Assembly (NCBI GenBank): GCA_964575755.1
Contig: CAZNRH010000004.1
Location: 699 to 64,698, forward strand
Source: an uncultured Candidatus Saccharibacteria bacterium
GTDB taxonomy: Bacteria; Patescibacteriota; Minisyncoccia; Phycocordibacterales; JABMNX01
Direction: 5' to 3'
Length of the DNA stretch: 64,000 bases
A model generated the notes under the pieces. The model made no database searches and was not told the DNA's origin. It was given only the letters and a program-made list of their open reading frames with translations. Of the stretch, positions 4,609-30,992 are shown in pieces; positions within the stretch are counted from its first letter, which is position 1; each line of letters begins with the position of its first letter. Both the position numbers and the translations under genes were made by a program.

Positions 4609-5085
4609 TCAGCTATTTTTTAAGTGATGTTCCTCTGAGTGACAATTTGGACAAAGTAGTTTTAGGTTTTTCAATTCGTTATTTTCTTTGTTTCTATCTA
4701 TATGATGTACCTCTAATATTTTAGATATATCATAAGTGCACACCTCACATGTTCCACCTCTTTGGTGTAGTAGCCTTATTTTTAAACTCCTTATGTTTTT
4801 GACCTTATCTCTAGGTCTATTGATTTTGTATTTGATGCCTGTTCTGTGTATGTTTGCACATTTCCTACTACATGTTTTTTTATTTGCGCTAGCAAGAATT
4901 AATGTTCTGCAAACGGTACAAGGTTTTTCTTTCCTACAAGAAATTCCATAACAAACTTGTCCACAGAATACTCTACCCCCATTCCTTTCGATCTCAGCAG
5001 GTCTTTTGTATACGGGTTTACTGCAAATTAAGCATTTTGTATTGGGATTTCTTTTATACTCAGTCACTAACCCAGTATACCACAA
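4609..5085 (-). CDS. HNH endonuclease with N-terminal Cys-rich zinc-finger region
   Basis: C-terminal 'VHHIDRNKENNELKNLKLLCPNCH'. Paralog of 13658-14131. Lies next to tRNA-Ser. Confidence 0.8.
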   Translation of the reverse strand: MWYTGLVTEYKRNPNTKCLICSKPVYKRPAEIERNGGRVFCGQVCYGISCRKEKPCTVCRTLILASANKKTCSRKCANIHRTGIKYKINRPRDKVKNIRSLKIRLLHQRGGTCEVCTYDISKILEVHHIDRNKENNELKNLKLLCPNCHSEEHHLKNS

Positions 5086-5122
5086 AAACGTTTCGTGTAA
5101 GTATGTGTTAGGATATAAAAAT

Positions 5123-5539
5123 ATGAAAATTTTAGGAATTGATTATGGAACAAAAAGAGTTGGTATCGCTATTTCTGACGACACGGCTTCTCTTGCGTTC
5201 CCTAAAGCGATATTGAGCAACTCACATACTCTTTTAGATGAAATAAAGTCTATTATTGATAGTAATAAAGTAGAAGAAATTGTTATTGGGCAGTCACTTA
5301 ATACAGAAGGAGAAGAAAATCTGCTAATGGAAGATATTAAAAGGTTTATGACTCACTTAGATGGAAAAGTTAATCTTCCTATGCATCTTGAACCAGAATT
5401 CTTTACTTCAACTGAAGCACATAAGGGTGTAAAGGGTGGGGAGGTAAATCCTCACATGATAGATGCTGCAGCGGCAGCGCTTATACTTCAAAGGTATCTT
5501 GACAGAAGAAATAATAGTAAAAAGCAGGAAGAAAAATAA
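5123..5539 (+). CDS. ruvX: Holliday-junction resolvase-like RuvX/YqgF
   Basis: 'MKILGIDYGTKRVGIAISD' N-terminal signature. Internal ATG at 5123 chosen over the ORF-track start at 5006. Confidence 0.85.
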   Translation: MKILGIDYGTKRVGIAISDDTASLAFPKAILSNSHTLLDEIKSIIDSNKVEEIVIGQSLNTEGEENLLMEDIKRFMTHLDGKVNLPMHLEPEFFTSTEAHKGVKGGEVNPHMIDAAAAALILQRYLDRRNNSKKQEEK

Positions 5540-5564
5540 TAAGTAAAAGGTATAATACATACAT

Positions 5565-5891
5565 ATGATTTCATTTGATGAGTTTAAAAATGTTGAGGTT
5601 AAGATAGGAGAGGTAAAGTCTGCAGAGCGTGTCGAGAATACTGATAAACTAATACGGCTCATGGTTGACGTGGGCGAGGAGGAGGATAGACAGATAGTCT
5701 CTGGTATAGCGCTTTACACTGAAGCAGATGCTCTTGTAGGAAGGAAGTTTCCATTTGTTGTAAATCTTGAGCCACGTGTTATTTGTGGTCTAGAAAGTAA
5801 TGGCATGATTCTAGCCGTCTCATCTAGTGACGGAGAGTTTTCTTTTTTAGAGCCTACATCAGATATTTCTGCTGGAAGTAGTATTGGATAA
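5565..5891 (+). CDS. Stand-alone tRNA-binding (Myf/EMAP-like, CsaA-type) domain protein
   Basis: 'VEVKIGEVKSAERVENTDKLIRLMVDVGE...QIVSGIA' matches the MetRS C-terminal / CsaA tRNA-binding domain. Confidence 0.75.
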   Translation: MISFDEFKNVEVKIGEVKSAERVENTDKLIRLMVDVGEEEDRQIVSGIALYTEADALVGRKFPFVVNLEPRVICGLESNGMILAVSSSDGEFSFLEPTSDISAGSSIG

Positions 5892-5905
5892 TATATAATC
5901 GATAT

Positions 5906-6517
5906 ATGTTGGTAAGTATTATAGAAAAAATAACAACACTACAAACACGTAGTACAGAGTGGTTTAAGGAAAGGGCACATGGTGCCTATGCTAAAGCATG
6001 GTTATTTTTCTTGTCATTTACTGAGTCTTCATTCTTGTTTATTCCGCCAGACATATTACTCGTCGCCATTTTACTGGCTGGTTCTCGTCAGTGGTTTCAC
6101 TATGCAACACTTACTACGATAGCGTCTGTACTCGGTGCTGTATTTGGTTATGCTGTGGCAGTGTTTTTCTTTGATACCGTGGGTATTAAGATAATACACT
6201 TCTATAACCTCGAAGTAGTCATGGATTCAGTACGGCTATTGTTTAACAACAATGCATTTTTAGTTATCTTCACAGCTGCATTTACTCCAATTCCATACAA
6301 AGTGTTTGTTCTCGCCGCTGGATTCCTTAAGGTTAACTTCTTTGCATTCCTTGTGGCTTCTATTATTGGCAGAGGGATGCGTTATTTTGTGATTTCATAC
6401 ACAGTCCATATGTTTGGTAAGCGTGCAGTGACACTTCTTTCTAGATACTCGGTTGCGGTTACATTAAGTGTTGTCATTCTCATTTCTATTTTTATAATAA
6501 AGGGTATATTTTTCTAA
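5906..6517 (+). CDS. DedA/YqaA-family (SNARE-associated) membrane protein
   Basis: Multi-TM protein with 'FLFIPPDILLVAILLAG' and the following Gly-rich helix, typical of DedA. Confidence 0.6.
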   Translation: MLVSIIEKITTLQTRSTEWFKERAHGAYAKAWLFFLSFTESSFLFIPPDILLVAILLAGSRQWFHYATLTTIASVLGAVFGYAVAVFFFDTVGIKIIHFYNLEVVMDSVRLLFNNNAFLVIFTAAFTPIPYKVFVLAAGFLKVNFFAFLVASIIGRGMRYFVISYTVHMFGKRAVTLLSRYSVAVTLSVVILISIFIIKGIFF

Positions 6518-9330: not shown

Positions 9331-9540
9331 CAACCTCTCCGGCGGGAATCGAAAGACGGAGGCTGCGAAGCCAGTTTCGAGGTGCGAGAAACTGTAGCCG
9401 AGTCCAGACGAAAAGCACTTAGTAAAATTGAGTCTTAAAGACGAAGAATTTTACTTAGTGACTGGTCGTCGATTCCTGAGATAAGTTTAAAGAGACATTG
9501 GTAAACAAAAATACCCTGAACGGGGTATTTTTGATTTTTG
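9331..9540. repeat. tRNA-Arg 3'-end fragment duplications (one inverted, one direct), possible integration scar
   Basis: Inverted copy 'taccaacctctccggcgggaatcgaa' at ~9330-9355. Direct copy of the tRNA 3' end plus its downstream terminator at ~9470-9540: 'cgattcctgagata..gagacattggtaaacaaaaataccctgaacggggtatttttgattt'. Confidence 0.6.
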
Positions 9541-9614
9541 TGGGCGATACAGGACTCGAACCTGTGACCTACCCGGTGTAAACGGGTTGCTCTAGCCAAC
9601 TGAGCTAATCGCCC
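9541..9614 (-). tRNA. tRNA-Val (anticodon TAC)
   Basis: Reverse complement reads GGGCGAT-TA-GCTCAGTTGGCTAGAGC...CCCGTTTACACCGGG...GGTTCGAGTCC...ATCGCCC-A. Confidence 0.85.
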
Positions 9615-9639
9615 CTATTAATATTCTACGGCAATATTA

Positions 9640-9737
9640 TACTCTTCGGATATAGACTAACCCGTTTACACAAAGGTGTAAACGGAGAAACTATGCTTTG
9701 GCATACTTTCTCCTCCATCCAACTGAGCTAATCGCCC
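9640..9737 (-). pseudogene. Degenerate tRNA-Val-like copy (pseudo-tRNA fragment)
   Basis: Repeats the 5' acceptor/D-arm 'gggcgattagctcagttgg' and the anticodon-arm segment 'acccgtttacac' of the adjacent tRNA-Val but has no T-arm. Confidence 0.5.
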
Positions 9738-9820
9738 TTAATGTAAGATTATAGTACGTTATTTCTTTAAAATGTTCAAATACTTTTCTTTAATCACTTA
9801 AGACTATACACTATATATCT

Positions 9821-10093
9821 ATGTATGAAATCAAAGCTAATATAACTGGTAATGTTCAGATGGTTATGTTTCGTGACTATGTGAAGCGTAGTGCGATAAA
9901 ATTTGACCTTAGTGGTACAGTTAAGAATCTAGGAGATGGCTCTGTGGAGGTGATTGCTCAAGGTAATAAAGATGACTTAAAAAAGTTAGTAAAGCTTCTC
10001 CATAAAGGCCCTATGCTAGCTAGTGTTATACGTGTTCATGTAGAGTGGAGGAAACCTGTCGAGGACTTTGATAGTTTTATCATTGTGTATTAA
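9821..10093 (+). CDS. acyP: Acylphosphatase
   Basis: 90 aa; 'ITGNVQMVMFRDYV' N-terminal signature and 'GTVKNLGDGSVEVIAQG'. Confidence 0.8.
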   Translation: MYEIKANITGNVQMVMFRDYVKRSAIKFDLSGTVKNLGDGSVEVIAQGNKDDLKKLVKLLHKGPMLASVIRVHVEWRKPVEDFDSFIIVY

Positions 10094-10121
10094 TATTTCT
10101 ACACAACACGTAATTTATTCT

Positions 10122-10811
10122 ATGGAAGAAAACACACAGACACCAAAATGCATTAGCATGATTATGGATGGAAATAGACGATGGGCAAAAGAAAGAGGAC
10201 TTTTCCCTGTTGAGGGTCATGCCAAAGGATATGAGAAACTAAAAGAAGTTATTGAGTGGACGTACGAAGCTGGTGTACCTAACCTTATTGTGTACGCATT
10301 TTCAACTGAAAATTGGAATAGGGCAAAAGAAGAAGTTTCATATCTCATGACCTTAATCCGTAAAGTGCTTGTTGAGCAATCTGAAGAATTTAATAAAAAA
10401 GGTAACAGAATTGTTTTTGCTGGCGACATAGAACGTTTTCCAAAAGATATACAAAAACTTATACATGAGTCAGAAGAAAAAACCAAAAATAATACTGGAA
10501 ATACTTTAGTGCTTTGTATTTCCTATAGTGGACGAACAGAGATACTGCACGCTGTAAATAATTTATTGAAAGGAGAAAAAACTTCTGTAAATGAAGAGGA
10601 ATTCTCACAAGCGCTTTGGATAAAGGATGTACCAGATCCGGACATTATTATTAGGACTGGTGGGGAAAAAAGACTTTCAGGCTTTTTAACATGGCAATCT
10701 GTATATAGTGAACTCTTTTTTCCAAAGACATTTTGGCCTGCATTTTCAAAAGAAGAATTTTTGGAGATTCTTAGAGAGTTTTCTTTTAGAGATAGACGTC
10801 GAGGAAAGTAA
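10122..10811 (+). CDS. uppS: Undecaprenyl-diphosphate synthase (cis-isoprenyl transferase)
   Basis: 'IMDGNRRWAKERG' and 'VYAFSTENWNR'. Start taken at the internal ATG at 10122. Confidence 0.9.
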   Translation: MEENTQTPKCISMIMDGNRRWAKERGLFPVEGHAKGYEKLKEVIEWTYEAGVPNLIVYAFSTENWNRAKEEVSYLMTLIRKVLVEQSEEFNKKGNRIVFAGDIERFPKDIQKLIHESEEKTKNNTGNTLVLCISYSGRTEILHAVNNLLKGEKTSVNEEEFSQALWIKDVPDPDIIIRTGGEKRLSGFLTWQSVYSELFFPKTFWPAFSKEEFLEILREFSFRDRRRGK

Positions 10812-10821
10812 AATTTGTAAT

Positions 10822-11547
10822 ATGAATATTTCAATAATTTACGAAGATGATTCTGTGACTGTGGTTAATAAGCCTGCTGGTCTTATTGTGCATGGTGATG
10901 GAAAGACAAAAGAGGACACCCTGGTTGATTGGATTCTTGATAAATATCCAGACATGAAAGGAGTAGGAGAGCCACTCGTGCTCACTTCAGGAGAAATAAT
11001 TGATCGACCTGGAATTGTTCATCGTATAGACAGAGACACTTCAGGAGTGCTTGTGTTGGCCAAAACACAAGAAAGTTTTTATTTCCTTAAGGAACAGTTT
11101 AAAAATCGTTCGGTAAAAAAAGAGTACAGAGCTTTTGTATACGGATGTGTTAAAAAAGATAAAGACATTATAGATAGAGAAATTGGCAGAAGTACTAAAG
11201 ATTTTAGATTGTGGTCGGCACAAAGAGGGGCTCGGGGTAAACTGCGTGAAGCTGTAACCGAGTATAGTGTTTTAGAGAGGAGTAAGGAGTTCAGCTACCT
11301 CTCGGTCTTCCTTAAGACAGGAAGGACGCACCAGATTCGCGTGCACTTTAAAGCTATTAATCATCCTGTGATTAGTGATAGGCTCTATGCCCCTAAGCGG
11401 GAACAGGCACTGGGTTTTAATAGACTGGCACTCCATGCGTTTCGTATTGAGCTAGAAATACCGAATATTGGAAGGAAATCCTTCGAGGCTCCGTTACCTA
11501 AAGATTTTAATACTGCCGTAGAGTCTTTGTCAAAGATGGTGGTATAA
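10822..11547 (+). CDS. RluA-family pseudouridine synthase
   Basis: Catalytic motif 'HRIDRDTSGVLVLAKT'. Internal ATG at 10822; no S4 domain. Confidence 0.85.
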   Translation: MNISIIYEDDSVTVVNKPAGLIVHGDGKTKEDTLVDWILDKYPDMKGVGEPLVLTSGEIIDRPGIVHRIDRDTSGVLVLAKTQESFYFLKEQFKNRSVKKEYRAFVYGCVKKDKDIIDREIGRSTKDFRLWSAQRGARGKLREAVTEYSVLERSKEFSYLSVFLKTGRTHQIRVHFKAINHPVISDRLYAPKREQALGFNRLALHAFRIELEIPNIGRKSFEAPLPKDFNTAVESLSKMVV

Positions 11548-12403: not shown

Positions 12404-13069
12404 GTGAATAAACGAGGTCCAAAACCTAAAGAGATAGTTGATACTACATGGTCTCCAAATCTTTCGTATGCTGTTGGATTGCTTGCGAGTGATGGGTGTT
12501 TGTCATGTGATGGACGACACATTGACTTTACCTCAAAGGACAAAGAACAAATTCTAAATTTCCGAAACATACTTAAGTTACATCATATTAAGATTGGTAA
12601 GAAAAGAAACAAGATGGGGAATGAGGCGTATCGCATTCAGTTTGGTAGTATTTTATTTTATCGATGGTTAAATGATATTGGTTTGACTTCAAATAAATCA
12701 AAAACAATTGGTAAATTAAATATTCCGGAAGAGCTCTTTTTTGATTTTTTCCGTGGTGTTTGGGATGGGGACGGTACAATATATGCATATTGGGATCCAA
12801 GATGGAAAAGTAGTTACATGTTTTACATTGGAATAGCATCCGCGAGTAAACCTTTTTTACAATGGTTACAAGATATAATTAGCAAACAGTCGGATGTGTG
12901 TGGGAAAATAACTCTTCATAAGACTTCTGGTACATTTCAATTACGTTTTGCAAAAAAAGAATCAAGAGTGGTTTTTAAAAGGATGTTCTATAAAAATAAT
13001 CTCCCATGTCTTCCTCGGAAGTTTGCAAAAGCACAAAAAATCTTTAAAATAGATGAGGATCATACATAA
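12404..13069 (+). CDS. LAGLIDADG-family homing endonuclease (double-motif, free-standing)
   Basis: Two LAGLIDADG-type motifs, 'VGLLASDGCLS' and 'FFRGVWDGDGTIYA'. Sits between rplS and tRNA-Leu. Confidence 0.75.
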   Translation: MNKRGPKPKEIVDTTWSPNLSYAVGLLASDGCLSCDGRHIDFTSKDKEQILNFRNILKLHHIKIGKKRNKMGNEAYRIQFGSILFYRWLNDIGLTSNKSKTIGKLNIPEELFFDFFRGVWDGDGTIYAYWDPRWKSSYMFYIGIASASKPFLQWLQDIISKQSDVCGKITLHKTSGTFQLRFAKKESRVVFKRMFYKNNLPCLPRKFAKAQKIFKIDEDHT

Positions 13070-13071
13070 AT

Positions 13072-13153
13072 GCCCAGGTGGTGGAAGTGGTATACACGCA
13101 CGGTTGAGGGCCGTGGCTCCTAGAGCATGCTGGTTCGAGTCCAGTCCTGGGCA
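13072..13153 (+). tRNA. tRNA-Leu (anticodon GAG)
   Basis: Acceptor GCCCAGG/CCTGGGC, anticodon loop TTGAGGG, long variable arm, T-loop TTCGAGT, discriminator A. Confidence 0.8.
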
Positions 13154-13154
13154 C

Positions 13155-20233: not shown

Positions 20234-20462
20234 TGAACATTTATCGACCTTGCGTGGCATTTTGTGAGTGAAACGAGACAAAATACCCGCAAGGTGTACA
20301 GTCCCTGTAAGGGATAGAAGTAGAAGGAAAGTAATTGGCTGTATAATATTGAAGCAAATCCCTCTGATTTCTATGAAATCAGAGGGATTTGCTTTCAAGT
20401 GTCTATATGTGGTAGTTTTTCCTTAGATTAACTTAGTTCACAATTATTTAGAGGAAAATAAA
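20234..20462 (+). other. Highly structured intergenic region where rplA would normally follow
   Basis: Long hairpins 'accttgcgtggcattttgt...acaaaatacccgcaaggt' and perfect 'gcaaatccctctgatttctatgaaatcagagggatttgc'. Confidence 0.4.
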
Positions 20463-21257
20463 ATGAAGCAGTATCTTGACTTACTGGGCCATATTATGAC
20501 AACTGGAGTCACTAAAACGGATCGCACAGGTACAGGCACGCGTAGTGTGTTTGGATATCAGATGCGGTTTGATTTAAGTGAAGGGTTTCCAGTACTTACC
20601 ACAAAGAAATTACACCTAAAATCAATAATTCATGAGTTACTTTGGTTTCTTTCCGGCGATACGAATACCAAATACCTCAAAGATAATGGGGTAAAAATCT
20701 GGGACGATTGGGCTGATGAAAATGGTAACTTGGGACCGGTGTACGGTTCACAGTGGCGTTCATGGCCTGTTGCAGGCGGAGAGCCTATCGATCAGATTAC
20801 TAATGTTATCAATCAAATTCATAAAACCCCAGATTCGAGAAGGCTTATTGTTTCCGCATGGAACCCGGCAGAGATTGATAACATGGCGTTACCGCCATGT
20901 CATCTGTTATTTCAATTTGGGGTCGCAGATGATCGCCTAAGTTGCCACCTTTACCAACGTTCATGTGACACATTCTTAGGGGTGCCGTTCAATATTGCGA
21001 GTTATGCGCTTCTGACTATGATGGTCGCACAGGTAACTGGGTATAAACTCGGTGACTTTGTGTGGACTGGTTGTGATGTGCATCTCTATTCGAATCATTT
21101 CGAGCAAGTGAAAGAACAGCTTTCTCGTACTCCGCTACCACTTCCTTCGATGTCCATTAATCCTGACGTCGATGACATTTTCGGATTTGTGTATCAGGAT
21201 TTCGAGTTGTTGAACTACGAGGCACTTCCGCACATCCAAGCGCCTATTTCGGTGTAA
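20463..21257 (+). CDS. thyA: Thymidylate synthase (ThyA, folate-dependent)
   Basis: '[10 protein letters not shown]', '[21 protein letters not shown]', 'DVHLYSNH'. Confidence 0.95.
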
Positions 21258-21265
21258 GATGGGTA

Positions 21266-21305
21266 AAAAAGGGGTTTGGCGAAAGCCAAACCCCTTTCTT
21301 TTTTA
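21266..21305 (+). terminator. Rho-independent terminator after thyA
   Basis: 'aaaaaaggggtttggcgaaagccaaacccctttctttttt'. Confidence 0.75.
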
Positions 21306-21427
21306 AGCCAAACCTGAACAACGTTGCAATAATAGATTTTTTTGAAGTAAAATGCAGGAGTTTTTATAGTATATTTACGCACTTGTCCAGTCTTTTAAAT
21401 GTTTCTTACATTAGGTATACTCTCTTA

Positions 21428-22108
21428 ATGGCATTATGTGAAATTGAAATAAAGAGCCTTTTAGGTTCTACAGAACGTGCGCAAGAGGTAAAGGATAGGT
21501 TGTGTGAACTTAATCCAGGGACGAAACTAAGCACTAAAAACAAACAACTTAATCATTATTTTCTCGGTGGAGACGTATCTAAGTTCGATGATGCGCTTTT
21601 ACCATTATTTACAGAAGAGAAACAGAAGGATTTTAAAGAAATAATCGAAAAAGGTTCTGACTTCTCAATACGTACACGTTTAATTGATGATGAAGAACTT
21701 ATTTTTGTAATTAAAGCATCTTTGGACGAAGGAAGTAGTCACAATACAGTTTCACGAATGGAATTTGAGTCAGTTATTACAGGTATGTCACTTGATGAGT
21801 TAGATAGGTTGATTTTAGATACAGGGTTTGAATATCAGGCAAAATGGTCACGAGAAAGAGAAGAATATAAAAGTGGGGAGATTACTGTGTGTTTTGATAA
21901 AAATGCAGGATATGGGTACTTAGCGGAATTCGAAAAAGTCATAAGTGACGAATCTTTAATTGAATCTACCCGTAAAGAATTATATGATTTTATGCAACTA
22001 CTTGGTGTAGAAGAGCTTTCTCAGGAAAGACTAGAGCGTATGTTTGCACATTATAATAAGAATTGGCCGAATTATTATGGAACCGATAAGGTTTTTAATA
22101 TAGAATAG
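21428..22108 (+). CDS. CYTH-domain protein (triphosphate tunnel metalloenzyme; CyaB / thiamine-triphosphatase-like)
   Basis: N-terminal 'CEIEIKSLL' (ExExK signature) plus downstream acidic residues. Internal ATG chosen. Confidence 0.6.
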   Translation: MALCEIEIKSLLGSTERAQEVKDRLCELNPGTKLSTKNKQLNHYFLGGDVSKFDDALLPLFTEEKQKDFKEIIEKGSDFSIRTRLIDDEELIFVIKASLDEGSSHNTVSRMEFESVITGMSLDELDRLILDTGFEYQAKWSREREEYKSGEITVCFDKNAGYGYLAEFEKVISDESLIESTRKELYDFMQLLGVEELSQERLERMFAHYNKNWPNYYGTDKVFNIE

Positions 22109-22109
22109 T

Positions 22110-22670
22110 ATGTTTTTATCTGACGTAGACATCAAAAAAGCAATTAAAGAAGAAAAGATCGTTATTAGTCCGTTTAATGAAAATCAGCTGCAGATGGTTA
22201 GTTATGACGTTCGATTGAGTAATGAATTTCAAGTCACCGATCGTCACAACATTGATTTCGTCGATCCTGCAAAAAAGAAATACCCTAAAACGCGAACCAT
22301 TTCTATTTCTGATGGAGATGAATTTATTCTTCACCCTGGAGAAAATGTACTTGGAAAGCAAATAGAGTACATTGGTTGTGATTTAGACCATCTTATTTTA
22401 CTTTCTGGTAAAAGCAGTCTTGCTAGAGCTGGACTTGTTGTACACAATACAGCAATGCTTTTTAATCCTGGACACTATTTCTACCCTACATTTGAATTAG
22501 TAAACACAAGCAATGTGCCTATTGTACTTAGGCCAGGGATGGAAATTGCCCAAATTCTTTTTGCCCGCTTAACAAGCTCTGCTGGAAAGGGATATAAAGA
22601 TGTTGGTCGTTACAACAAGGAGAATTCAGACCATTTTGCTGAAAAGAAACAGAGCCCTAAACACAAATAA
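22110..22670 (+). CDS. dcd: dCTP deaminase (dUTPase superfamily)
   Basis: 'MFLSDVDIKKAIKEEKIVISPF...VSYDVRL' N-terminal pattern and 'LHPGE' / 'GLVVHNTA' motifs. Confidence 0.85.
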   Translation: MFLSDVDIKKAIKEEKIVISPFNENQLQMVSYDVRLSNEFQVTDRHNIDFVDPAKKKYPKTRTISISDGDEFILHPGENVLGKQIEYIGCDLDHLILLSGKSSLARAGLVVHNTAMLFNPGHYFYPTFELVNTSNVPIVLRPGMEIAQILFARLTSSAGKGYKDVGRYNKENSDHFAEKKQSPKHK

Positions 22671-22674
22671 AAAT

Positions 22675-24195
22675 ATGGTTGATGATGTATACATTAAATC
22701 ACTCACTGATGCCGGTTGGCCACAGGAATTTAATGAGAAATTACACACCAGTAATCTAAAGAGCAGTGTTGGTATTGCGACACTTTGGACTTATAAAGAT
22801 GTTGTATGTAAGGATCTGGATCCTGATAGTTATGTCGTAGTTGGACAATTCTACGATAGGCGTAACGCATTAGACCCGTTTTTACGTAACTGTCTCGCGA
22901 ATCCAAACATTCGTCACATTATTTTACTTGGTAATGATAAAGCTAATAGTCGTGAAGTTCTCGTTAATTTTTTTGACAAAGGTATCAATGAAGGGAAAGT
23001 GATAGGGACTGACTGCACTGTATCAGAACTTATTCCACTTGAAGATATAGAAATTTTACGTAAAAATATAACTTTACATGACCTGACTGATGAGATAAAA
23101 GACCTTGATGACTCAAAGGAGTATGCAAGGGTTATTAATGCTATTGTAAAAACTGTTACAGACTCAAAGCCATACGCTGAGCCGAAGTTATATGAAAAGC
23201 CAGAGATTGCTACTGACAGTTTCCCGTCAGAGAAAATCGGTTTCGTAGTTCGCGGAGAAAGGGTTGGGGAAACTTGGCTCAAAATACTCCGTACGGTATA
23301 CGATTATGGAACCATGGTCAAAATGAAATCAAAGGATTCTACAAAAGTACGCATGAGTCAAAATCTTATGGTTGTTATAGATGGAGAGGATCCAGATGAC
23401 CCTCAGATGGAGGAATATTTTCGTTTTGATAAGCCATATCTTAAGAGTTATTACGATGAAATTTGTACTGATAAAATTCCAGAAGGAACGCTTTATACTT
23501 ACGGCTCTCGTTTGCGTGGATGGGAAGGTAAGGGAGGCGAAAAGATCGATCAAATTGCTGACATTATTTCATACCTTAAAGAAGATCAATATCGTGCCTC
23601 TACAATAGCACAGACATGGATAGTTGAAGATGAACTTACAAGACGTATTTTAAATAAAGATAAAAGCAGTCCTTGCATAGTTCTCGTACAAGCGTATGCA
23701 CCAGAGGATAAACTTACACTTACTGTATATTTCCGAAGTAACGACATGTTTCGTGCATGGCCACTAAATGCATTTGGTCTATTAAAACTCCAGAAAGTTA
23801 TTGCTGAAGGGCTTGGTTTAAAGATGGGAGCACTTACGATTATTTCATGTAGCGCTCATATATATCAAGACAACTTTGGAGATACTAAAGATGTTTTAGA
23901 CAAATATCACAAAAACACGAATTGTTTCTTTGATCCACGTGGTTACTATGCAGTTAGTCTTAATTGTAATGAAATTAAAGTACAACATTTTTCGCCAAAT
24001 AGTCAGTTACTTAAAGAATATTCAGGGACTAAAGCTCGTGAAATTAATGACGAGATTAATAGTAGTCAACACCCATTTGACTCATACCACTCTTCTTATC
24101 TTGGTGAAGAGCTGATGAAGGCAGAGACAGCGCTTAATCTTAGTATTTCGTATACTCAAGATGGAGACCTTGATTTATCGTCATTTATAAAGTAA
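22675..24195 (+). CDS. ThyA-fold paralog (506 aa): full thymidylate-synthase/dUMP-hydroxymethylase-like domain with catalytic residues retained, fused to an unknown ~200-aa N-terminal domain
   Basis: C-terminal ~300 aa align to the adjacent ThyA: 'YGSRLRGWEGKGGEKIDQI', 'SPCIVLVQAY' (Pro-Cys nucleophile), 'YFRSNDMFRAWPLNAF' (Arg-Ser, Asp, Asn), 'SAHIYQDN' (His, Tyr). Start at the internal ATG at 22675. Confidence 0.7.
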   Translation: MVDDVYIKSLTDAGWPQEFNEKLHTSNLKSSVGIATLWTYKDVVCKDLDPDSYVVVGQFYDRRNALDPFLRNCLANPNIRHIILLGNDKANSREVLVNFFDKGINEGKVIGTDCTVSELIPLEDIEILRKNITLHDLTDEIKDLDDSKEYARVINAIVKTVTDSKPYAEPKLYEKPEIATDSFPSEKIGFVVRGERVGETWLKILRTVYDYGTMVKMKSKDSTKVRMSQNLMVVIDGEDPDDPQMEEYFRFDKPYLKSYYDEICTDKIPEGTLYTYGSRLRGWEGKGGEKIDQIADIISYLKEDQYRASTIAQTWIVEDELTRRILNKDKSSPCIVLVQAYAPEDKLTLTVYFRSNDMFRAWPLNAFGLLKLQKVIAEGLGLKMGALTIISCSAHIYQDNFGDTKDVLDKYHKNTNCFFDPRGYYAVSLNCNEIKVQHFSPNSQLLKEYSGTKAREINDEINSSQHPFDSYHSSYLGEELMKAETALNLSISYTQDGDLDLSSFIK

Positions 24196-24215: not shown

Positions 24216-25274
24216 ATGATTTCATACGTTGTTGATTTTGTGAAAAAATATAAACAGCATTTGCCTGCGGTGGCGCTTGTCGCTGGTCTTGTGTGGGATT
24301 CGATTACGCTTGGGCGTCCTGATCAGCTTTATGGAAATATTGTACTTTTGACGTATTTACTTATCGCGGGATTCTGTATTGCACTGATGGCACACAGGGA
24401 AGTGCTTAAGAAAAAGTCAAAGATTTGGCTCTCTCTTATTGTGCAATTTGCTTTTGGTAACCTTACAGGTGGACTTCTGGTGTTGTATATTGGAAGTGCA
24501 ACTCTTGCTCAAAATTGGCCGTTTCTTTTAATACTCGCAGGGCTACTTGTTGGAAATGAAATATTTAAGTCTAGATACAGGAGGGTGCAGTTTAATATTT
24601 TAGTTTATTACTTACTCGTCTTTTTGTACTCGATTTTAATCGTACCTGTTGTTTTCCGCTCTATTGAATCATGGACATTTTTGGTAAGTGCTCTCCTTAG
24701 TATTGTTGTCATAAGTTTGTTCTTATACATAATTCGACTTGTGGCGAAAAAAGTATTTAAGCAGAGCAAGAAGATGTTTAAAATAGGTATTTTCTCAACA
24801 CTTTTTATTTTTTCAATCTTTTATTATTTAAACATTATTCCACCTGTCCCACTCGCTGTCCGCGACGTTGGCATCTTTCATTCAGTTGTACGCTCTGGCG
24901 GTGACTATTTTGTTACTTACGAAGAAGGTGCTTGGTATAAATTCTGGTGGAAGTCTGACTCTACTATATATCTTAAAAATACTAATACGGCTTCTTGCTT
25001 CAGTTCTGTTTTTGCTCCTACGGAATTAGAGACCCCAATATTTCATGTGTGGGAGATGTACGATAAAAATTCCGGTATGTGGGAAGAGCGTGGCAGGTTT
25101 AACTTTCCTATTGTTGGTGGCCGTGTAGATGGATATCGTGGATACAGCGAGAAGACTATTACAGAAGGCATGTGGCGCTGTTCAGTAGAAACAGAGCGTG
25201 GAGCACTCTTAGGGCGGGTAAGTATCGAGGCTATTTTGGACACTCCACCAGAATTCGTTACTGACTTGCGCTAG
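24216..25274 (+). CDS. Membrane protein with ~6 TM helices and a C-terminal extracytoplasmic domain (DUF2914-like)
   Basis: Hydrophobic N-terminal two thirds; C-terminal 'FHVWEMYDKNSGMWEERGRF' soluble domain. Confidence 0.5.
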   Translation: MISYVVDFVKKYKQHLPAVALVAGLVWDSITLGRPDQLYGNIVLLTYLLIAGFCIALMAHREVLKKKSKIWLSLIVQFAFGNLTGGLLVLYIGSATLAQNWPFLLILAGLLVGNEIFKSRYRRVQFNILVYYLLVFLYSILIVPVVFRSIESWTFLVSALLSIVVISLFLYIIRLVAKKVFKQSKKMFKIGIFSTLFIFSIFYYLNIIPPVPLAVRDVGIFHSVVRSGGDYFVTYEEGAWYKFWWKSDSTIYLKNTNTASCFSSVFAPTELETPIFHVWEMYDKNSGMWEERGRFNFPIVGGRVDGYRGYSEKTITEGMWRCSVETERGALLGRVSIEAILDTPPEFVTDLR

Positions 25275-27476: not shown

Positions 27477-30400
27477 ATGACTGATAGTAAAGATATTTCT
27501 AACACTTCTAATAATGTGCAAAACAAGAGTGATATAGCGCTACACGAAGAGGCTATTTTAGAGTTTTGGAATAAAAATAATATTTTTAAAAAGTCTGAAG
27601 AAAAGGATGCTCCGAAAGGGGAGTTTGTTTTTTACGATGGTCCTCCATTCGCTAGTGGACCCCCTCACTATGGACATTTCCTAGCAAGCACAATAAAGGA
27701 TGCTATACCGCGATATAAGACTATGCGAGGGTATCGTGTGAATCGTAGATGGGGGTGGGATTGCCACGGTCTTCCTGTTGAGAATCTAATTGAAAAAGAA
27801 CTTGACCTTAAAACAAAAAAAGATATAGAACTGTACGGTATAGAAAAATTTAACGAAGCCGCTAGAAGTTCGATAATGAGGGATGCTGATATTTGGAAAA
27901 AAATTATTCCTCGTTTGGGACGTTTTGTTGATATGGAACGTGACTACAAAACGATGGATACCTCATACACAGAGAGTGTGTGGTGGATATTTAATGAACT
28001 GAATAAAAAGAAATTTATCTATAAAGGTTTTAAATCGATGCACCTTTGTCCTAGGTGTGGGACAACTCTTTCTAATTTTGAAGTGAATCAGGGGTACAAA
28101 GATATAACTGATATTTCTGTATATGTAAAACTAGAACTTGAAGACGAACCGGGTACATATTTGCTGGTATGGACTACAACTCCGTGGACACTTCCAGGGA
28201 ATATGGCGGCAGCTATTCATAAGGATGTCACATACATAAAAGTAAAAACAGATGCAGGTAATCTTATCCTTGCTAAAAACCGACTATCTGTATTAGATGG
28301 TGAGTATTCTGTCATTGAAGAATTTAAGGGTGAGAAACTTCTAGGTAAATCGTACACACCTTTGTTTAGTTATTTTCAAGATTCTGAAATAAAAGGTAGG
28401 GAAAACGCTTGGAAGATTTATCATGCTGATTATGTTTCTACGGAAGATGGGACTGGGGCGGTGCACATAGCGCCTGCGTTTGGTGAAGAAGATTTACAGC
28501 TAGCACAAAAGGAAGGAATTCCCATAGTACATCACATAAGCCCCGATGGAGAGTTTATAAAAGAAGTAAAAGATTTTGCTGGGCTACAAGCAAAACCAAA
28601 AGACGATCCTCAGAGGACTGATATTGAGATTATTAAACATCTTGCGCATGATGAAAGAAATCTTTTGTATAAGAAAGAGAAGGTTACTCATTCATACCCG
28701 CATTGTTGGAGGTGTGATACTCCTTTGCTTAACTATGCTTCATCTTCATGGTTTGTAAAAGTAAAAAGATTTAAAGATAAACTTGTTTCTGAAAATAAGA
28801 AAATTAAATGGGTTCCAAAAGAAATGGGGGAAAATAGGTTTGGTAATTGGCTTGAAGGAGCTCGCGACTGGGCAATTTCAAGAAGTAGATACTGGGGTGC
28901 TCCGCTTCCAGTATGGGAGGATAAGAAAAAAAGCACATACATAACATTTGGCTCAATAGCAGATCTTAAAAAGAGTATAAAAAGGTCTGGGAATAAATAT
29001 CTAATAATGCGTCATGGTGAAGCGGTGTTTAATACTAAAAACACTCTTAATTCTAACGTATCCGTCGACAATCCTCTAACAGAAAAAGGTAAAGAAAATA
29101 TAAAGATTGCCGTTAAAGGATTAAGTGGAAAGATAGATGTCGTTATACATTCACCACTGCAAAGGACTCGCGAGACAGCAAAGCTTTTAGTGAAAGAACT
29201 TGGTTTGTCTGAAGAGATATTAAAAGAGGATGCGCGGCTTAAAGAGGTTACATTTGGTGAGTTTGAAGGAAAGTCAGTTGATAAATATCACTCTTTTTAT
29301 AAATTTACTAAAGAACAAATGCTTAAGAAGCCTCATGGTGGGGAATCATGGAGTGAGGTTAAGAACAGAATTACAGAAGCTCTATATAAATTTGAAAATG
29401 AATATAAAGACAAGACTATTTTAATTGTTTCTCACAATGGACCGCTTCAAATGATACAAGCTGGAAGTGAGGGGTTTGATATGGATACATGTGGAGAGTG
29501 TATAACTGACGATAGATTTGATTTAAAGACTGGTGAAGTGCGAGAGCTTTCATTTATTCCACTTCCGCATAATAAAAATTTTGAGCTTGATTTACATAGA
29601 CCATATATTGATGATGTTGAGGTTGTAAATAAAGAGGGTGAAGTGCTAAAGCGAGTTCCTGAAGTGTTTGACTGCTGGTTTGAATCTGGCTCTATGCCGT
29701 ATGCACAACAACATTATCCGTTTAAGAATACTGATACATTTGAACCAAAAAGTGGATTGTTTTCTAAGTCTAAAGGCTACCCAGCCGATTTTATTGCAGA
29801 AGGAACGGATCAGACACGTGGGTGGTTTTACTCCCTGATTGTCCTAGGTGTTGGACTCTTTAACAAAGCGCCGTATAAAAATGTAATAGTAAACGGAATG
29901 ATTTTGGCTGAGGATGGTCAGAAGATGAGTAAGCGTCTTAGAAATTACCCTGACCCTGTAGGGGTTATGGATAAATATGGTGCCGATGCCCTTAGGTACT
30001 ACTTACTTTCCTCGCCTATTGTACGTGGTGAAGATTTAAGCTTCTCTGAAAGTGGGGTTGATGAAGTAATGAAGAAGCTTGTTGGACGACTTTCTAATGT
30101 GAGTTCGTTTTATGAATTGTATAAGGGTGATGTCGAAGATAAAACAAAATCAAACAGTACACATATGCTCGACAGGTGGATTCTTGAGCGAACTAAAGAA
30201 TTAACAAAAGCAGTGACTGATGCGATGGAGAAGTATGAGCTCGATAAGGCAACGCGACCAATAGGTAAGTTTATTGATGATCTTTCTACGTGGTATATCA
30301 GGCGTTCTAGAGATAGGTTTAAAGGTGATGATACGGAGGATAAACTGTACGCACTTAATACTACGAGAGAGGTGTTGTTTGAGATGAGTAAAATAATTGC

Positions 30401-30992
30401 ACCGTTTATGCCGTTTTATGCAGAGACGTTGTATCAAACAGTTAAGAGTGAGTCAGACCCTGAGAGTGTGCACTTGTGTGAATGGCCTGAGGTTATGTCG
30501 GTAGACAATAATATACTAAATGAGATGGAAGAGGTTAGAAATATTGTGTCTCTCGCCCTTGAAGCGCGTTCTTCCGATGGCATAAAAGTTCGACAGCCGT
30601 TAGCTCAATTAAAAGTTAAGAGTAAAAAACTAAAAGGTAAAGACGGACTACTTGAACTTATACAAGATGAAGTGAATGTTAAAGAGGTGGTCGTAGACTC
30701 TTCAATAGAACCTGATGTTTTACTGGATATTAAACTAACTCCAGAGTTGAAGAGTGAAGGTGTTGCGCGAGATATTGTACGGCAGATACAGCAGTTCCGT
30801 AAAGATAGTAATCTATCACCTCAAGATACTATTACTCTTGTTGTTGACGTGGATAGCGACCTTAAGAAGATTATTGAAGATAATATGGAAGATATAAAAC
30901 AAACTGCACTCATTAGAGAGATCTTGTTCGAGTCAGTTGATGGAGAAGGTGCTTCTATTTCAGGGAAACGAATCGCGTTTAAGCTTAAGTAA
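27477..30992 (+). CDS. ileS: Isoleucyl-tRNA synthetase (eukaryote/archaeal-like type) with an inserted histidine-phosphatase (PGAM-family) domain
   Basis: 'GPPHYGHFLAS', 'GWDCHGLP', 'EVFDCWFESGSMPYAQ' and 'GQKMSKRLRNYPDP' place it in IleS. The ~190-aa insertion (aa ~505-695) carries the histidine-phosphatase motifs 'IMRHGEAVFN', 'PLTEKG', 'HSPLQRTRETA', 'FGEFEG', 'IVSHNGPL'. Confidence 0.85.
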   Translation: MTDSKDISNTSNNVQNKSDIALHEEAILEFWNKNNIFKKSEEKDAPKGEFVFYDGPPFASGPPHYGHFLASTIKDAIPRYKTMRGYRVNRRWGWDCHGLPVENLIEKELDLKTKKDIELYGIEKFNEAARSSIMRDADIWKKIIPRLGRFVDMERDYKTMDTSYTESVWWIFNELNKKKFIYKGFKSMHLCPRCGTTLSNFEVNQGYKDITDISVYVKLELEDEPGTYLLVWTTTPWTLPGNMAAAIHKDVTYIKVKTDAGNLILAKNRLSVLDGEYSVIEEFKGEKLLGKSYTPLFSYFQDSEIKGRENAWKIYHADYVSTEDGTGAVHIAPAFGEEDLQLAQKEGIPIVHHISPDGEFIKEVKDFAGLQAKPKDDPQRTDIEIIKHLAHDERNLLYKKEKVTHSYPHCWRCDTPLLNYASSSWFVKVKRFKDKLVSENKKIKWVPKEMGENRFGNWLEGARDWAISRSRYWGAPLPVWEDKKKSTYITFGSIADLKKSIKRSGNKYLIMRHGEAVFNTKNTLNSNVSVDNPLTEKGKENIKIAVKGLSGKIDVVIHSPLQRTRETAKLLVKELGLSEEILKEDARLKEVTFGEFEGKSVDKYHSFYKFTKEQMLKKPHGGESWSEVKNRITEALYKFENEYKDKTILIVSHNGPLQMIQAGSEGFDMDTCGECITDDRFDLKTGEVRELSFIPLPHNKNFELDLHRPYIDDVEVVNKEGEVLKRVPEVFDCWFESGSMPYAQQHYPFKNTDTFEPKSGLFSKSKGYPADFIAEGTDQTRGWFYSLIVLGVGLFNKAPYKNVIVNGMILAEDGQKMSKRLRNYPDPVGVMDKYGADALRYYLLSSPIVRGEDLSFSESGVDEVMKKLVGRLSNVSSFYELYKGDVEDKTKSNSTHMLDRWILERTKELTKAVTDAMEKYELDKATRPIGKFIDDLSTWYIRRSRDRFKGDDTEDKLYALNTTREVLFEMSKIIAPFMPFYAETLYQTVKSESDPESVHLCEWPEVMSVDNNILNEMEEVRNIVSLALEARSSDGIKVRQPLAQLKVKSKKLKGKDGLLELIQDEVNVKEVVVDSSIEPDVLLDIKLTPELKSEGVARDIVRQIQQFRKDSNLSPQDTITLVVDVDSDLKKIIEDNMEDIKQTALIREILFESVDGEGASISGKRIAFKLK
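28990..29560 (+). other. Histidine-phosphatase (phosphoglycerate-mutase-like) domain nested inside ileS
   Basis: Motifs RHGE, SPLxRTxxTA, EG and SHNG lie between the IleS segments '...YWGAPLPVWED..ITFGSIADLKK' and 'DLHRPYIDD...PEVFDCWFESG'. Confidence 0.75.

Follow-up and report, generated by a model that had tools for sequence, protein, structure and literature searches.

A ThyA-fold core between MtrA-like and DUF4346 domains: a probable thymidylate synthase of DPANN archaea and CPR bacteria

The 64,000-nucleotide stretch of CPR DNA analysed here (the window) carries two genes for ThyA-fold proteins and raises the question of what the second of them makes. Thymidylate synthesis is essential and a classic drug target, and two classes of thymidylate synthase are known, ThyA and ThyX. 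We suggest that the second gene (22675-24195) probably encodes the thymidylate synthase of many DPANN archaea and CPR bacteria and that, judging from sequence comparisons, it would be of DPANN origin in this genome.

Layout of the locus and of the 506-aa protein

The gene order thyA, CYTH, dcd and 506-aa ORF given in the first-pass annotation is correct, with all four genes on the forward strand. The canonical thyA (20463..21257, 264 aa; PF00303, 407 bits; NF002497, 469 bits) is followed directly at its 3' side by an intrinsic-terminator-like hairpin on the same strand (21268..21297; 13-bp stem with 7 G-C pairs, then a T-run), and promoter-like sites lie at 21324-21370, upstream of the CYTH (triphosphate-tunnel) gene (21428..22108; PF01928, 41 bits). 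CYTH is the first gene of a conserved operon in which the start of dcd (dCTP deaminase, 22110..22670; PF22769, 125 bits; TIGR02274, 149 bits) lies 2 nt past the CYTH stop and its end 4 nt ahead of the gene for the 506-aa protein (22675..24195). An alternative CYTH start, a TTG at 21383, is less likely because the homologues are 226 aa long; CYTH orthologues of this length occupy the equivalent position in relatives of the window (L002, L082, L083/L084, L085 and L088). The terminator-like hairpin splits thyA from the CYTH-dcd-[three-domain gene] operon, and thyA, formerly counted as part of a single cluster, lies outside that transcription unit.

The 506-aa protein consists of three domains, all encoded on the forward strand: (i) an N-terminal domain with the Rossmann-type fold of MtrA (aa 13-163; 22711..23163), (ii) a ThyA catalytic domain of the short, archaeal type (aa 189-415; 23239..23919) and (iii) a PterinBD-DUF4346 domain (aa 420-496; 23932..24162), the ThyA core being inserted between the other two. 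The two-part layout proposed at first overlooked the last of these: of the C-terminal ~300 aa assigned to ThyA, only the core at ~aa 189-415 belongs there, and aa 420-496 form a separate domain. The description of the N-terminal region as not DHFR-like stands, in that it has no match to PF00186 and has the MtrA fold instead. The DUF4346 domain comprises three strands and two helices and matches PF14251 with 60.1 bits (threshold 29.6) over profile positions 2-86 of 86. The AF2 model of the protein is confident throughout (pLDDT 90.4, pTM 0.82), and the pTM suggests fixed packing between the domains. Moreover, W38, Y60, R71 and N76 of the N-terminal domain and D420, H472, E479, Q495 and D496 of the DUF4346 domain are invariant or near-invariant in cellular and viral copies (within DUF4346, the first three are invariant and the last two near-invariant), suggesting a ligand site in the accessory domains.

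The ORF is a genuine gene. Its position beside thyA is the one point that would speak for an ordinary duplicated ThyA, or for an artefact in which a frameshift fused an upstream gene, and we regard this reading as practically negligible: identity to the neighbouring ThyA is 29% over 135 aa only, an independent assembly gives an identical 506-aa product, the structural model is confident over its whole length, and the same full-length layout recurs in hundreds of species and on viral contigs, which rules out a frameshift artefact or a recent duplication of the thyA beside it.

Catalytic residues and distribution of the family

The core has the ThyA alpha/beta fold, and its C-terminal half can be matched to E. 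coli ThyA: Cys334, the predicted nucleophile in the motif S-P-C-I-V (codon 23674..23676, forward strand, located from the translation), corresponds to Cys146, Arg354/Ser355 to Arg166/Ser167 (phosphate), Asp357 to Asp169 (pterin N3), Asn365 to Asn177 (uracil), Tyr276 to Tyr94 and His395/Tyr397 to His207/Tyr209. Both P333-C334 and Asn365 are kept in 90/90 cellular and 67/67 viral copies, and among the cellular copies conservation is 90/90 for R354, D357 and Y276, 89/90 for Y397, 87/90 for S355 and 85/90 for H395. Thus, the Cys, Arg-Ser, Asp, Asn, His and Tyr noted in the first-pass annotation are present and invariant or nearly so across 90 homologues and 67 viral copies, and the catalytic Cys and Arg, whose loss in homologues was to count against the assignment, are each found in all 90 cellular copies. 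The statement that all catalytic residues are retained holds for the C-terminal half; the N-terminal ~80 aa of the core are unalignable to canonical ThyA, and candidates for Arg21, Glu58 and Trp80 in this unalignable region, R/K226 (84/90), E238 (89/90) and Y259 (90/90), are guesses. In the Arg126/127 region (residues 307-309) the basic residues vary, with 'YRAS' in the window protein and 'SKR' or 'SRR' elsewhere. Taken together, the alignments support a ThyA-fold enzyme with an intact predicted active site.

The earlier argument that the retained Asn favours a uracil substrate gains from the invariance of Asn365. Cytosine-specific ThyA-fold enzymes of the T4 gp42 type have Asp at the Asn177 position, and this feature of dCMP hydroxymethylases is absent from the family.

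The three-domain architecture occurs in at least 519 GTDB species of DPANN archaea and CPR bacteria, a lower bound because the scan was pattern-seeded, and forms 289 clusters at 50% identity (E<=1e-30). It is also carried by some large phages: 81 IMG/VR viral contigs have it, one of them with a terminase gene 3 kb from the three-domain gene, and none of 50,697 deposited phage genomes does. Members are labelled 'thymidylate synthase', 'hypothetical protein' or 'DUF4346 domain-containing protein' in databases, and a literature search found no paper describing the family, which is large and apparently unstudied. Minisyncoccus archaeiphilus PMX.108 is a cultured carrier of the gene.

Origin, gene neighbourhoods and proposed function

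In a bootstrapped NJ tree the window protein and five CPR relatives (95%) are enclosed first by one archaeal group and then by a second (100% and 100%), and this nesting of the CPR lineage within DPANN sequences (bootstrap 100%) indicates a putative transfer of the three-domain gene from a DPANN archaeon to CPR bacteria. Together with the curated model that matches best, TIGR03283 (126-129 bits), it bears out an early hint at archaeal ThyA-like enzymes. CYTH-dcd-[three-domain gene] is a conserved operon of this CPR clade. Five relatives (L002, L082, L083, L085 and L088) have no canonical thyA at this site. In the window its GC3 is 0.426 versus 0.25-0.30 in the neighbouring genes, and its product has 62% identity to E. 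coli ThyA and 73-76% to proteobacterial ThyAs. It codes for a second thymidylate synthase, is transcribed separately, has a foreign composition and forms a lineage-specific insert, a monocistronic cassette probably of recent acquisition. The first impression, that the second ThyA-fold gene is the unusual addition, is thereby reversed: the three-domain gene is the clade's conserved resident. The locus would then record an inter-domain transfer from DPANN to CPR as well as the swap or addition of a thymidylate synthase module at a hot spot after rplK.

Across the 80 loci of the three-domain gene surveyed, dCMP deaminase is a neighbour in 41/80 by neighbour clustering and in 28/80 by direct search, mostly immediately upstream, and thymidylate kinase (Tmk) in 25-27/80, mostly immediately downstream. 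Natural fusions link the three-domain protein to a following dCMP deaminase (P0021, L061), to a following Tmk (P0023, P0104) and to a preceding dUTPase (P0048). This position between dUMP-producing enzymes and Tmk, together with the fusions, is a signature of dTMP synthesis. Among close relatives, the slot after rplK holds either CYTH-dcd-[three-domain gene] (L082, L083, L085, L002) or thyA-DCD-tmk (L086), which implies one common end product. We infer from gene context and fusions that the enzyme catalyses dUMP + CH2-H4folate -> dTMP + H2folate. In this model, (i) Dcd would convert dCTP to dUTP and in this way supply the three-domain enzyme with uracil deoxynucleotide, (ii) dUMP would arise from dUTP, possibly through the CYTH triphosphatase of the same operon, and (iii) the three-domain enzyme would convert dUMP to dTMP with a methylene-tetrahydropterin.

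Alternatively, the protein could act as a C5-hydroxymethylase of dUMP, or as a ThyA-fold enzyme that modifies C5 in another way, and provide a modified base such as 5-hmdU for DNA, with the downstream kinase phosphorylating the modified nucleotide in an SPO1-like manner. Phage SPO1 has 5-hmdU in its DNA, phages with hmdU likewise have the gene order 'dCMP deaminase, ThyA-like, kinase', and the occurrence of the family on viral contigs, including the one with a terminase gene, fits this alternative. In addition, another sequence takes the place of the canonical C-terminal lid and a Tyr probably that of Trp80, and ThyA mutants with such changes leak hmdUMP; finally, in several lineages the gene shares an operon with canonical ThyA, and it is mostly ThyA that DHFR accompanies. 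However, most three-domain loci have no second thymidylate synthase within 8 kb, the partner kinase, fused to the enzyme in some cases, is an ordinary Tmk (PF02223, 163 bits), the recurrent neighbours include no glycosyl- or other hypermodification genes, and both the shared slot after rplK and the nearest curated family, a thymidylate synthase, argue for dTMP as the product. Given this, we consider hydroxymethylation very unlikely, and the initial reading of the gene as belonging to a hypermodified-base or cofactor-biosynthesis pathway gives way to the dTMP signal of the 80 loci and the fusions. Sequence by itself lacks the power to tell methylation of dUMP from its hydroxymethylation, and we know of no diagnostic sequence feature of dUMP hydroxymethylases.

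For dTMP synthesis, the cofactor is most likely 5,10-methylene-tetrahydrofolate, since FolD, SHMT or DHFR genes adjoin the three-domain gene in some related loci. Examples are the orders rplK-folD-CYTH-dcd-[three-domain gene] in L088, thyA, DHFR-SHMT fusion, [three-domain gene], tmk in L058, and [three-domain gene], tmk, thyA, DHFR-SHMT fusion in L056. Canonical ThyA is also present in 3/4 of the loci with DHFR near the three-domain gene, and this coupling of DHFR mainly to ThyA suggests that the three-domain enzyme may not release dihydrofolate. Canonical ThyA adjoins or lies near the gene in four archaeal loci (L004, L032, L056, L058) and in the window, which would be unexpected if the two enzymes were purely redundant.

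Our best guess is that the MtrA-like/DUF4346 module binds or retains a scavenged pterin cofactor. The module could go further and supply or recycle a one-carbon or reducing cofactor in a non-classical route to dTMP that does without DHFR: a tightly bound pterin could be re-reduced in place, a His-off corrinoid could relay methyl groups from methyl-pterin, or methanopterin-type carriers of the host could be used. This idea is consistent with the match of the accessory domains to NCBIfam models named for tetrahydromethanopterin (MtrA) and archaeal dihydropteroate-synthase-like proteins, with their conserved polar residues and apparently fixed packing, with a catalytic core closest to methanogen-type ThyA, with the scarcity of DHFR beside the gene where ThyA is lacking, and with Cys-rich acidic tails in 21/156 family members and thioredoxin-like neighbours at 4 loci; moreover, the cultured carrier L066 parasitises a methanogen (PMC12281837). 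In MtrA, His84 is the lower axial cobalt ligand and Glu54 is part of a hydrogen-bond relay (PMC4915002), but in the three-domain protein His84 aligns to a 2-residue gap, Glu54 to Arg62, the GAIPFxEN segment is not kept, and neither His nor Cys is conserved in the His84 loop across the family. Corrinoid binding by the MtrA-fold domain is accordingly doubtful, and in the His-on manner of MtrA unlikely, the ligand His being deleted. Furthermore, the invariant Asp357 (Asp169) favours ordinary methylene-pterin chemistry, the FolD, SHMT and DHFR neighbours indicate folate rather than methanopterin, and 'pterin-binding' is only the Pfam name of DUF4346, a fold without a solved relative. Thus, we hold a non-classical route to be unlikely, and equally unlikely a novel cofactor logic in which a scavenged, quasi-prosthetic pterin or a His-off corrinoid would allow folate-auxotrophic DPANN archaea, CPR bacteria and the phages of both to make dTMP without dihydrofolate reductase; if true, such a logic would add to ThyA and ThyX a third, mechanistically distinct class of thymidylate synthase.

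Whichever cofactor is used by the probable thymidylate synthase, the family points to a third architecture beside ThyA and ThyX, both deep and widespread, with a ThyA core embedded in two further domains, and it is concentrated in DPANN archaea and CPR bacteria, which are ultra-small and scavenge cofactors. The role of the accessory domains would bear on how these symbionts obtain or recycle a one-carbon carrier, on lineages that keep the three-domain enzyme and ThyA-DHFR-SHMT in one operon, and on whether MtrA-domain matches outside methanogens partly represent this enzyme. With M. archaeiphilus PMX.108 in culture, the question is accessible to experiment.

Comparison with known systems

The closest curated relative is the methanogen-type thymidylate synthase TIGR03283 (thy_syn_methano), all 201 positions of which align to aa 191-401 (E ~1e-37). 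It scores 125.9 bits on the whole protein and 128.6 bits on the excised core, below the cut-off of 174.55, while canonical ThyA models score ~63 bits. TIGR03283 enzymes have a likewise shortened ThyA core and, presumably, the same catalytic residues; in contrast to the window protein with its extra N-terminal MtrA-fold and C-terminal DUF4346 domains, they are single domains of ~200 aa, and they occur in methanogens whereas the three-domain family occurs in DPANN, CPR and phages. The biochemistry of archaeal and methanogen ThyA is little studied, and cofactor specificity is hard to predict (PMC9931769, PMC9012536). Canonical ThyA (E. coli/L. casei type, PF00303), of which the window's own thyA product is one example, shares ~24-29% identity with the three-domain core; it differs in the first ~80 residues, which are unalignable, in the Arg126/127 pair, which is variable in the family, in its C-terminal lid, which is replaced by ~60 extra residues, and in lacking the two additional domains.

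MtrA itself (PF04208/TIGR01111; PDB 5l8x, 5laa) is the corrinoid subunit of tetrahydromethanopterin:coenzyme M methyltransferase; the three-domain gene, by contrast, lies outside any mtr operon (mtrA-H) among genes for nucleotide metabolism, and its product has no C-terminal membrane helix. The two accessory domains match, in identical order, the MtrA-like/DUF4346 two-domain proteins (NF002128), in which they are adjacent (positions 118-261 and 289-369) rather than separated by a ~230-aa ThyA core, and a DUF4346 tail is also found in the dihydropteroate-synthase-like TIGR00284 (profile positions 418-497). Finally, the ThyA fold serves base modification in T4 dCMP hydroxymethylase, SPO1 gp29, MilA and the phage dCMP hydroxylase (9iqc/9iqu); similarity to SPO1 gp29, a dUMP hydroxymethylase, is generic (26% identity), and the genomic context of the three-domain gene is that of dTMP synthesis.

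The thymidylate locus of the window

Four genes lie in a row on the forward strand of the window: thyA (20463-21257; 264 aa; PF00303, 407 bits), a CYTH gene (21428-22108; the 226-aa form starting at 21428 agrees with all orthologues), dcd (22110-22670; TIGR02274, 149 bits) and a 506-aa ORF (22675-24195), here called the three-domain gene, whose ATG at 22675 is separated from the dcd stop codon by 4 nt. The first-pass annotation described this ORF as a second ThyA-fold gene. The gene is real and all four ThyA motif strings quoted in that annotation are found in the ORF; the description was incomplete in that the protein has three domains rather than two. An artefact or a simple duplication is extremely improbable: a frameshift or fusion artefact was rejected because an independent assembly also gives the identical 506-aa product, and a recent duplication of thyA was rejected because the ORF is 29% identical to the window ThyA over 135 aligned aa (E 3e-18). 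The 64-kb window contains no DHFR, Tmk or dCMP deaminase gene, and riboswitches or other RNA regulation sought with Rfam across the window yielded tRNAs only.

The order secE-nusG-rplK-CYTH-dcd-three-domain gene-...-argS-ileS is common to five close CPR relatives (loci L002, L082 from Kaiserbacteria, L083/L084, L085 and L088), without thyA after rplK. The slot after rplK is empty in L082, L083, L085 and L002, holds folD in L088 (L088:115-1458; order rplK-folD-CYTH-dcd-three-domain gene), where the window has thyA (20234-21427), and holds thyA-DCD(long form)-tmk in L086 (L086:707-3685), in which RplK and ThyA are 83% and 84% identical to those of the window and the three-domain gene is absent from the part of the contig examined. 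It has the look of a hot spot where modules for dTMP and folate are exchanged. The occupation of one chromosomal site by two alternative dTMP modules in related organisms argues for an equivalent output of thyA-DCD-tmk and CYTH-dcd-three-domain gene, and the window is a hybrid of both modules. Because the window thyA has its own promoter-like site and strong terminator (21268-21297), a GC3 of 0.426 versus 0.25-0.30 for CYTH, dcd, the three-domain gene, argS and ileS, and a product 73-76% identical to proteobacterial ThyAs, it looks like a more recent arrival than the three-domain gene. In a bootstrapped NJ tree of the three-domain proteins, the window copy groups with those of five CPR relatives (95% bootstrap). 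This clade has six Nano-, Pace- and Woesearchaeota sequences as its sister (100%) and six more Woesearchaeota sequences as the next group out (100%); all remaining CPR copies are placed elsewhere. This nesting within two successive archaeal groups indicates that the gene of the window clade was acquired from archaea.

CYTH is the first gene of the CYTH-dcd-three-domain gene operon conserved in the window's CPR clade (orthologues at L002:1597-2277, L082:4755-5435, L083:4741-5421, L085:1462-2142 and L088:1506-2186). Among 80 genome loci it is found in L002 only, which belongs to the same clade as the window; as dUTPase or dCMP deaminase takes the equivalent place in other lineages, CYTH may be a substitute for dUTP pyrophosphatase. 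Directly 3' of the three-domain gene lies a gene for a multi-pass membrane protein with a C-terminal DUF2914 (24216-25274), which is also present in L082:7613-8686 and L088:4368-5030 and not in L083 or L085. Further downstream, the isoleucyl-tRNA synthetase (27477-30992; 1171 aa) carries a histidine-phosphatase domain (PF00300, aa 509-670, 106 bits) within its catalytic domain, an insertion also noted in its orthologues from L082, L083 and L085. Elsewhere in the window, a 151-aa ORF (12614-13069) has a LAGLIDADG-like 'GVWDGDGTIYAY' motif and no Pfam match; upstream of it lies an unusually long L19 gene (11600-12334; 244 aa), and tRNA-Leu(GAG) (13072-13154) begins 3 nt beyond its end.

Active site, gene context and proposed reaction

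Residue equivalences were taken from a profile-profile alignment of aa 270-444 with E. coli ThyA 88-259 (probability 99%) and conservation from column counts in 90 homologues. Tyr276, Pro333-Cys334, Arg354, Asp357 and Asn365 (Tyr94, Pro145-Cys146, Arg166, Asp169 and Asn177 in E. coli) are present in 90/90, Tyr397 (Tyr209) in 89/90, Ser355 (Ser167) in 87/90 and His395 (His207) in 85/90, and every catalytic residue including Asn365 is retained in the viral copies (67/67). The first ~80 aa of the ThyA core, its N-terminal third, could not be aligned to canonical ThyA in this way, and R/K226, E238 and Y259 are for this reason candidate equivalents of Arg21, Glu58 and Trp80; the position of the Arg126/127 pair varies ('YRAS' in the window protein, 'SKR' or 'SRR' in other members). 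Overall, the comparison shows that the active site is of the ThyA type, suited to a uracil nucleotide and, through Asp357, to a pterin. The invariance of Asn365 supports a uracil nucleotide as the likely substrate, in line with what the first-pass annotation had deduced from the retained Asn, and led us to reject a dCMP-specific hydroxymethylase.

In a survey of about ±8 kb around each three-domain copy in 80 loci, the commonest neighbour is dCMP deaminase (41/80 loci by clustering, 28/80 by direct search), mostly immediately upstream, followed by thymidylate kinase (25-27/80), which in most cases comes directly after the three-domain gene and often overlaps its stop codon. The three-domain protein also occurs in three kinds of natural fusion, with dCMP deaminase (P0021, L061) or Tmk (P0023, P0104) behind it and with dUTPase in front of it (P0048). 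Each fusion partner either produces dUMP or consumes dTMP, which is the best evidence in favour of a dUMP-to-dTMP reaction. Based on gene context and fusions, we suggest that the three-domain gene probably carries out classical dTMP synthesis. In this scheme, Dcd would convert dCTP to dUTP, from which dUMP would be formed, perhaps, and speculatively, by the CYTH triphosphatase, which is kept in the operon of the close CPR relatives examined; Cys334 would attack C6 of dUMP, C5 would take the methylene from CH2-H4folate, and hydride transfer would give dTMP.

In the window and in four archaeal loci (L004, L032, L056 and L058), canonical ThyA is adjacent or close to the three-domain gene, and DHFR is found near this gene mainly where ThyA is also present (3/4 loci). 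Both patterns speak against a plain redundant thymidylate synthase. They fit a thymidylate synthase with non-classical cofactor handling that does not release dihydrofolate, a reading that we regard as unlikely. They fit a dUMP hydroxymethylase too; however, with every fusion partner making dUMP or consuming dTMP, this enzyme is improbable, and the hydroxymethylase or hypermodified-base pathway proposed in the first-pass annotation finds no support in gene context and fusions, which point to dUMP to dTMP. A ThyX motif scan of the loci, covering about ±8 kb per copy, gave nothing credible.

The three-domain gene is linked to genes of the folate cycle as well: besides folD in L088, the gene orders are thyA, DHFR-SHMT fusion, three-domain gene, tmk in L058 and three-domain gene, tmk, thyA, DHFR-SHMT fusion in L056. 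The DHFR-SHMT fusion gene of these Woesearchaeota, which shares an operon with the other three, encodes N-terminal DHFR and SHMT in a single polypeptide (PF00186 and PF00464; L058:6176-7993, L056:5290-7011). The neighbouring dCMP deaminase often carries or adjoins a P-loop kinase-like domain (AAA_17/AAA_18) found in 11 loci, e.g. L058:4081-5118 (- strand) and L016:6277-7362.

Distribution in archaea, bacteria and viruses

The three-domain gene is a widespread ThyA variant common to DPANN archaea, CPR bacteria and large phages. A protein search found full-length homologues down to ~36% identity in Nano-, Woese-, Pace- and Aenigmarchaeota and Kaiserbacteria, labelled 'thymidylate synthase', 'hypothetical protein' or 'DUF4346 domain-containing protein' in their sources. 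A pattern-seeded scan, in which each GTDB species was represented by a single genome, gave a lower bound of 519 species with a relative; among the carriers are many CPR lineages and a cultured organism, Minisyncoccus archaeiphilus PMX.108 (PMC12281837), in which the role of the two extra domains can be tested. An exhaustive HMMER search (E<=1e-30) gave 289 clusters at 50% identity. The titles of some MAG records ('Gammaproteobacteria', 'Bacilli', 'Methanosarcinales') seem untrustworthy, and we did not count them as evidence. Our literature searches found no published description of the architecture or family; published work describes the biochemistry of archaeal and methanogen ThyA as little explored and the cofactor specificity of these enzymes as difficult to predict (PMC9931769, PMC9012536).

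The architecture is absent from 50,697 deposited phage genomes. We dropped this absence as an argument against a phage link because 81 IMG/VR viral contigs, some of them 190-200 kb long, carry full-length copies (28-32% identity). In one (L090), a large terminase gene (9490-11463) lies 3 kb downstream of the three-domain gene (4941-6470), and in another a tail-fibre-like gene lies upstream. These contigs of up to 200 kb are predicted to be large phages. A further full-length homologue in the IMG/VR set (L089-L168) is L137:4953-6500, and a stand-alone short ThyA core of the same subtype (234-296 aa) is the only form in three viral contigs (L162, L164 and L168).

Domain architecture and the accessory module

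The 506-aa protein consists of three domains. The N-terminal domain (aa ~13-163) has weak similarity to MtrA (Pfam, 20.6 bits, the threshold of 25 not being reached; relatives pass it with 42-52 bits) and its sequence can be matched to those of the MtrA crystal structures 5l8x and 5laa (E about 1e-4). With this domain being MtrA-like, a DHFR-TS-like fusion was rejected. In MtrA the cobalt ligand is His84, which in turn is held by Glu54 (PMC4915002). In the window protein His84 falls in a 2-residue deletion ('GNDKAN--S' vs 'GSEVQGHI') and Glu54 is aligned to Arg62; the ligand loop has no conserved His or Cys in 90 homologues, and Gly86 and Asp88 are invariant there. On these grounds we rejected an MtrA-type, His-on mode of corrinoid binding, which is improbable for this domain. 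A 2026 reconstruction infers that the last archaeal common ancestor had MtrA (arCOG03221; PMC13473441); MtrA-fold domains within DPANN thymidylate synthases could affect the presence/absence counts of such reconstructions.

The accessory domains have invariant (W38, Y60, R71, N76, D420, H472, E479) and near-invariant residues (Q495, D496). Read most simply, the MtrA-like/DUF4346 module would be a cofactor-binding or cofactor-retention device. Acidic, Cys-rich C-terminal tails with repeats such as 'DSCSTDSCAV' occur in 21/156 family members (including P0011, P0013, P0015, P0016, P0020, P0022, P0024, P0031 and P0037-P0043), most of them in the archaeal clade nearest to the window gene; the window protein has no such tail. 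A redox or metal-binding role of these tails is possible. Thioredoxin-like genes neighbour the three-domain gene in 4 loci, e.g. L015:10563-10880.

The middle domain (aa ~189-415) covers the whole of TIGR03283, the methanogen-type thymidylate synthase model, with 126-129 bits, about twice the score of canonical ThyA models and below the family cut-off of 174.55. The C-terminal domain (aa 420-496) is PterinBD-DUF4346 (PF14251, 60 bits). In the NF002128 model an MtrA-like domain (positions 118-261) adjoins DUF4346 (289-369) with no ThyA core between them, unlike in the window protein, and DUF4346 also stands at the end of TIGR00284, a dihydropteroate-synthase-like family. Judged against these models, the window protein is a pre-existing MtrA-like/DUF4346 two-domain module into which a ThyA core has been inserted.
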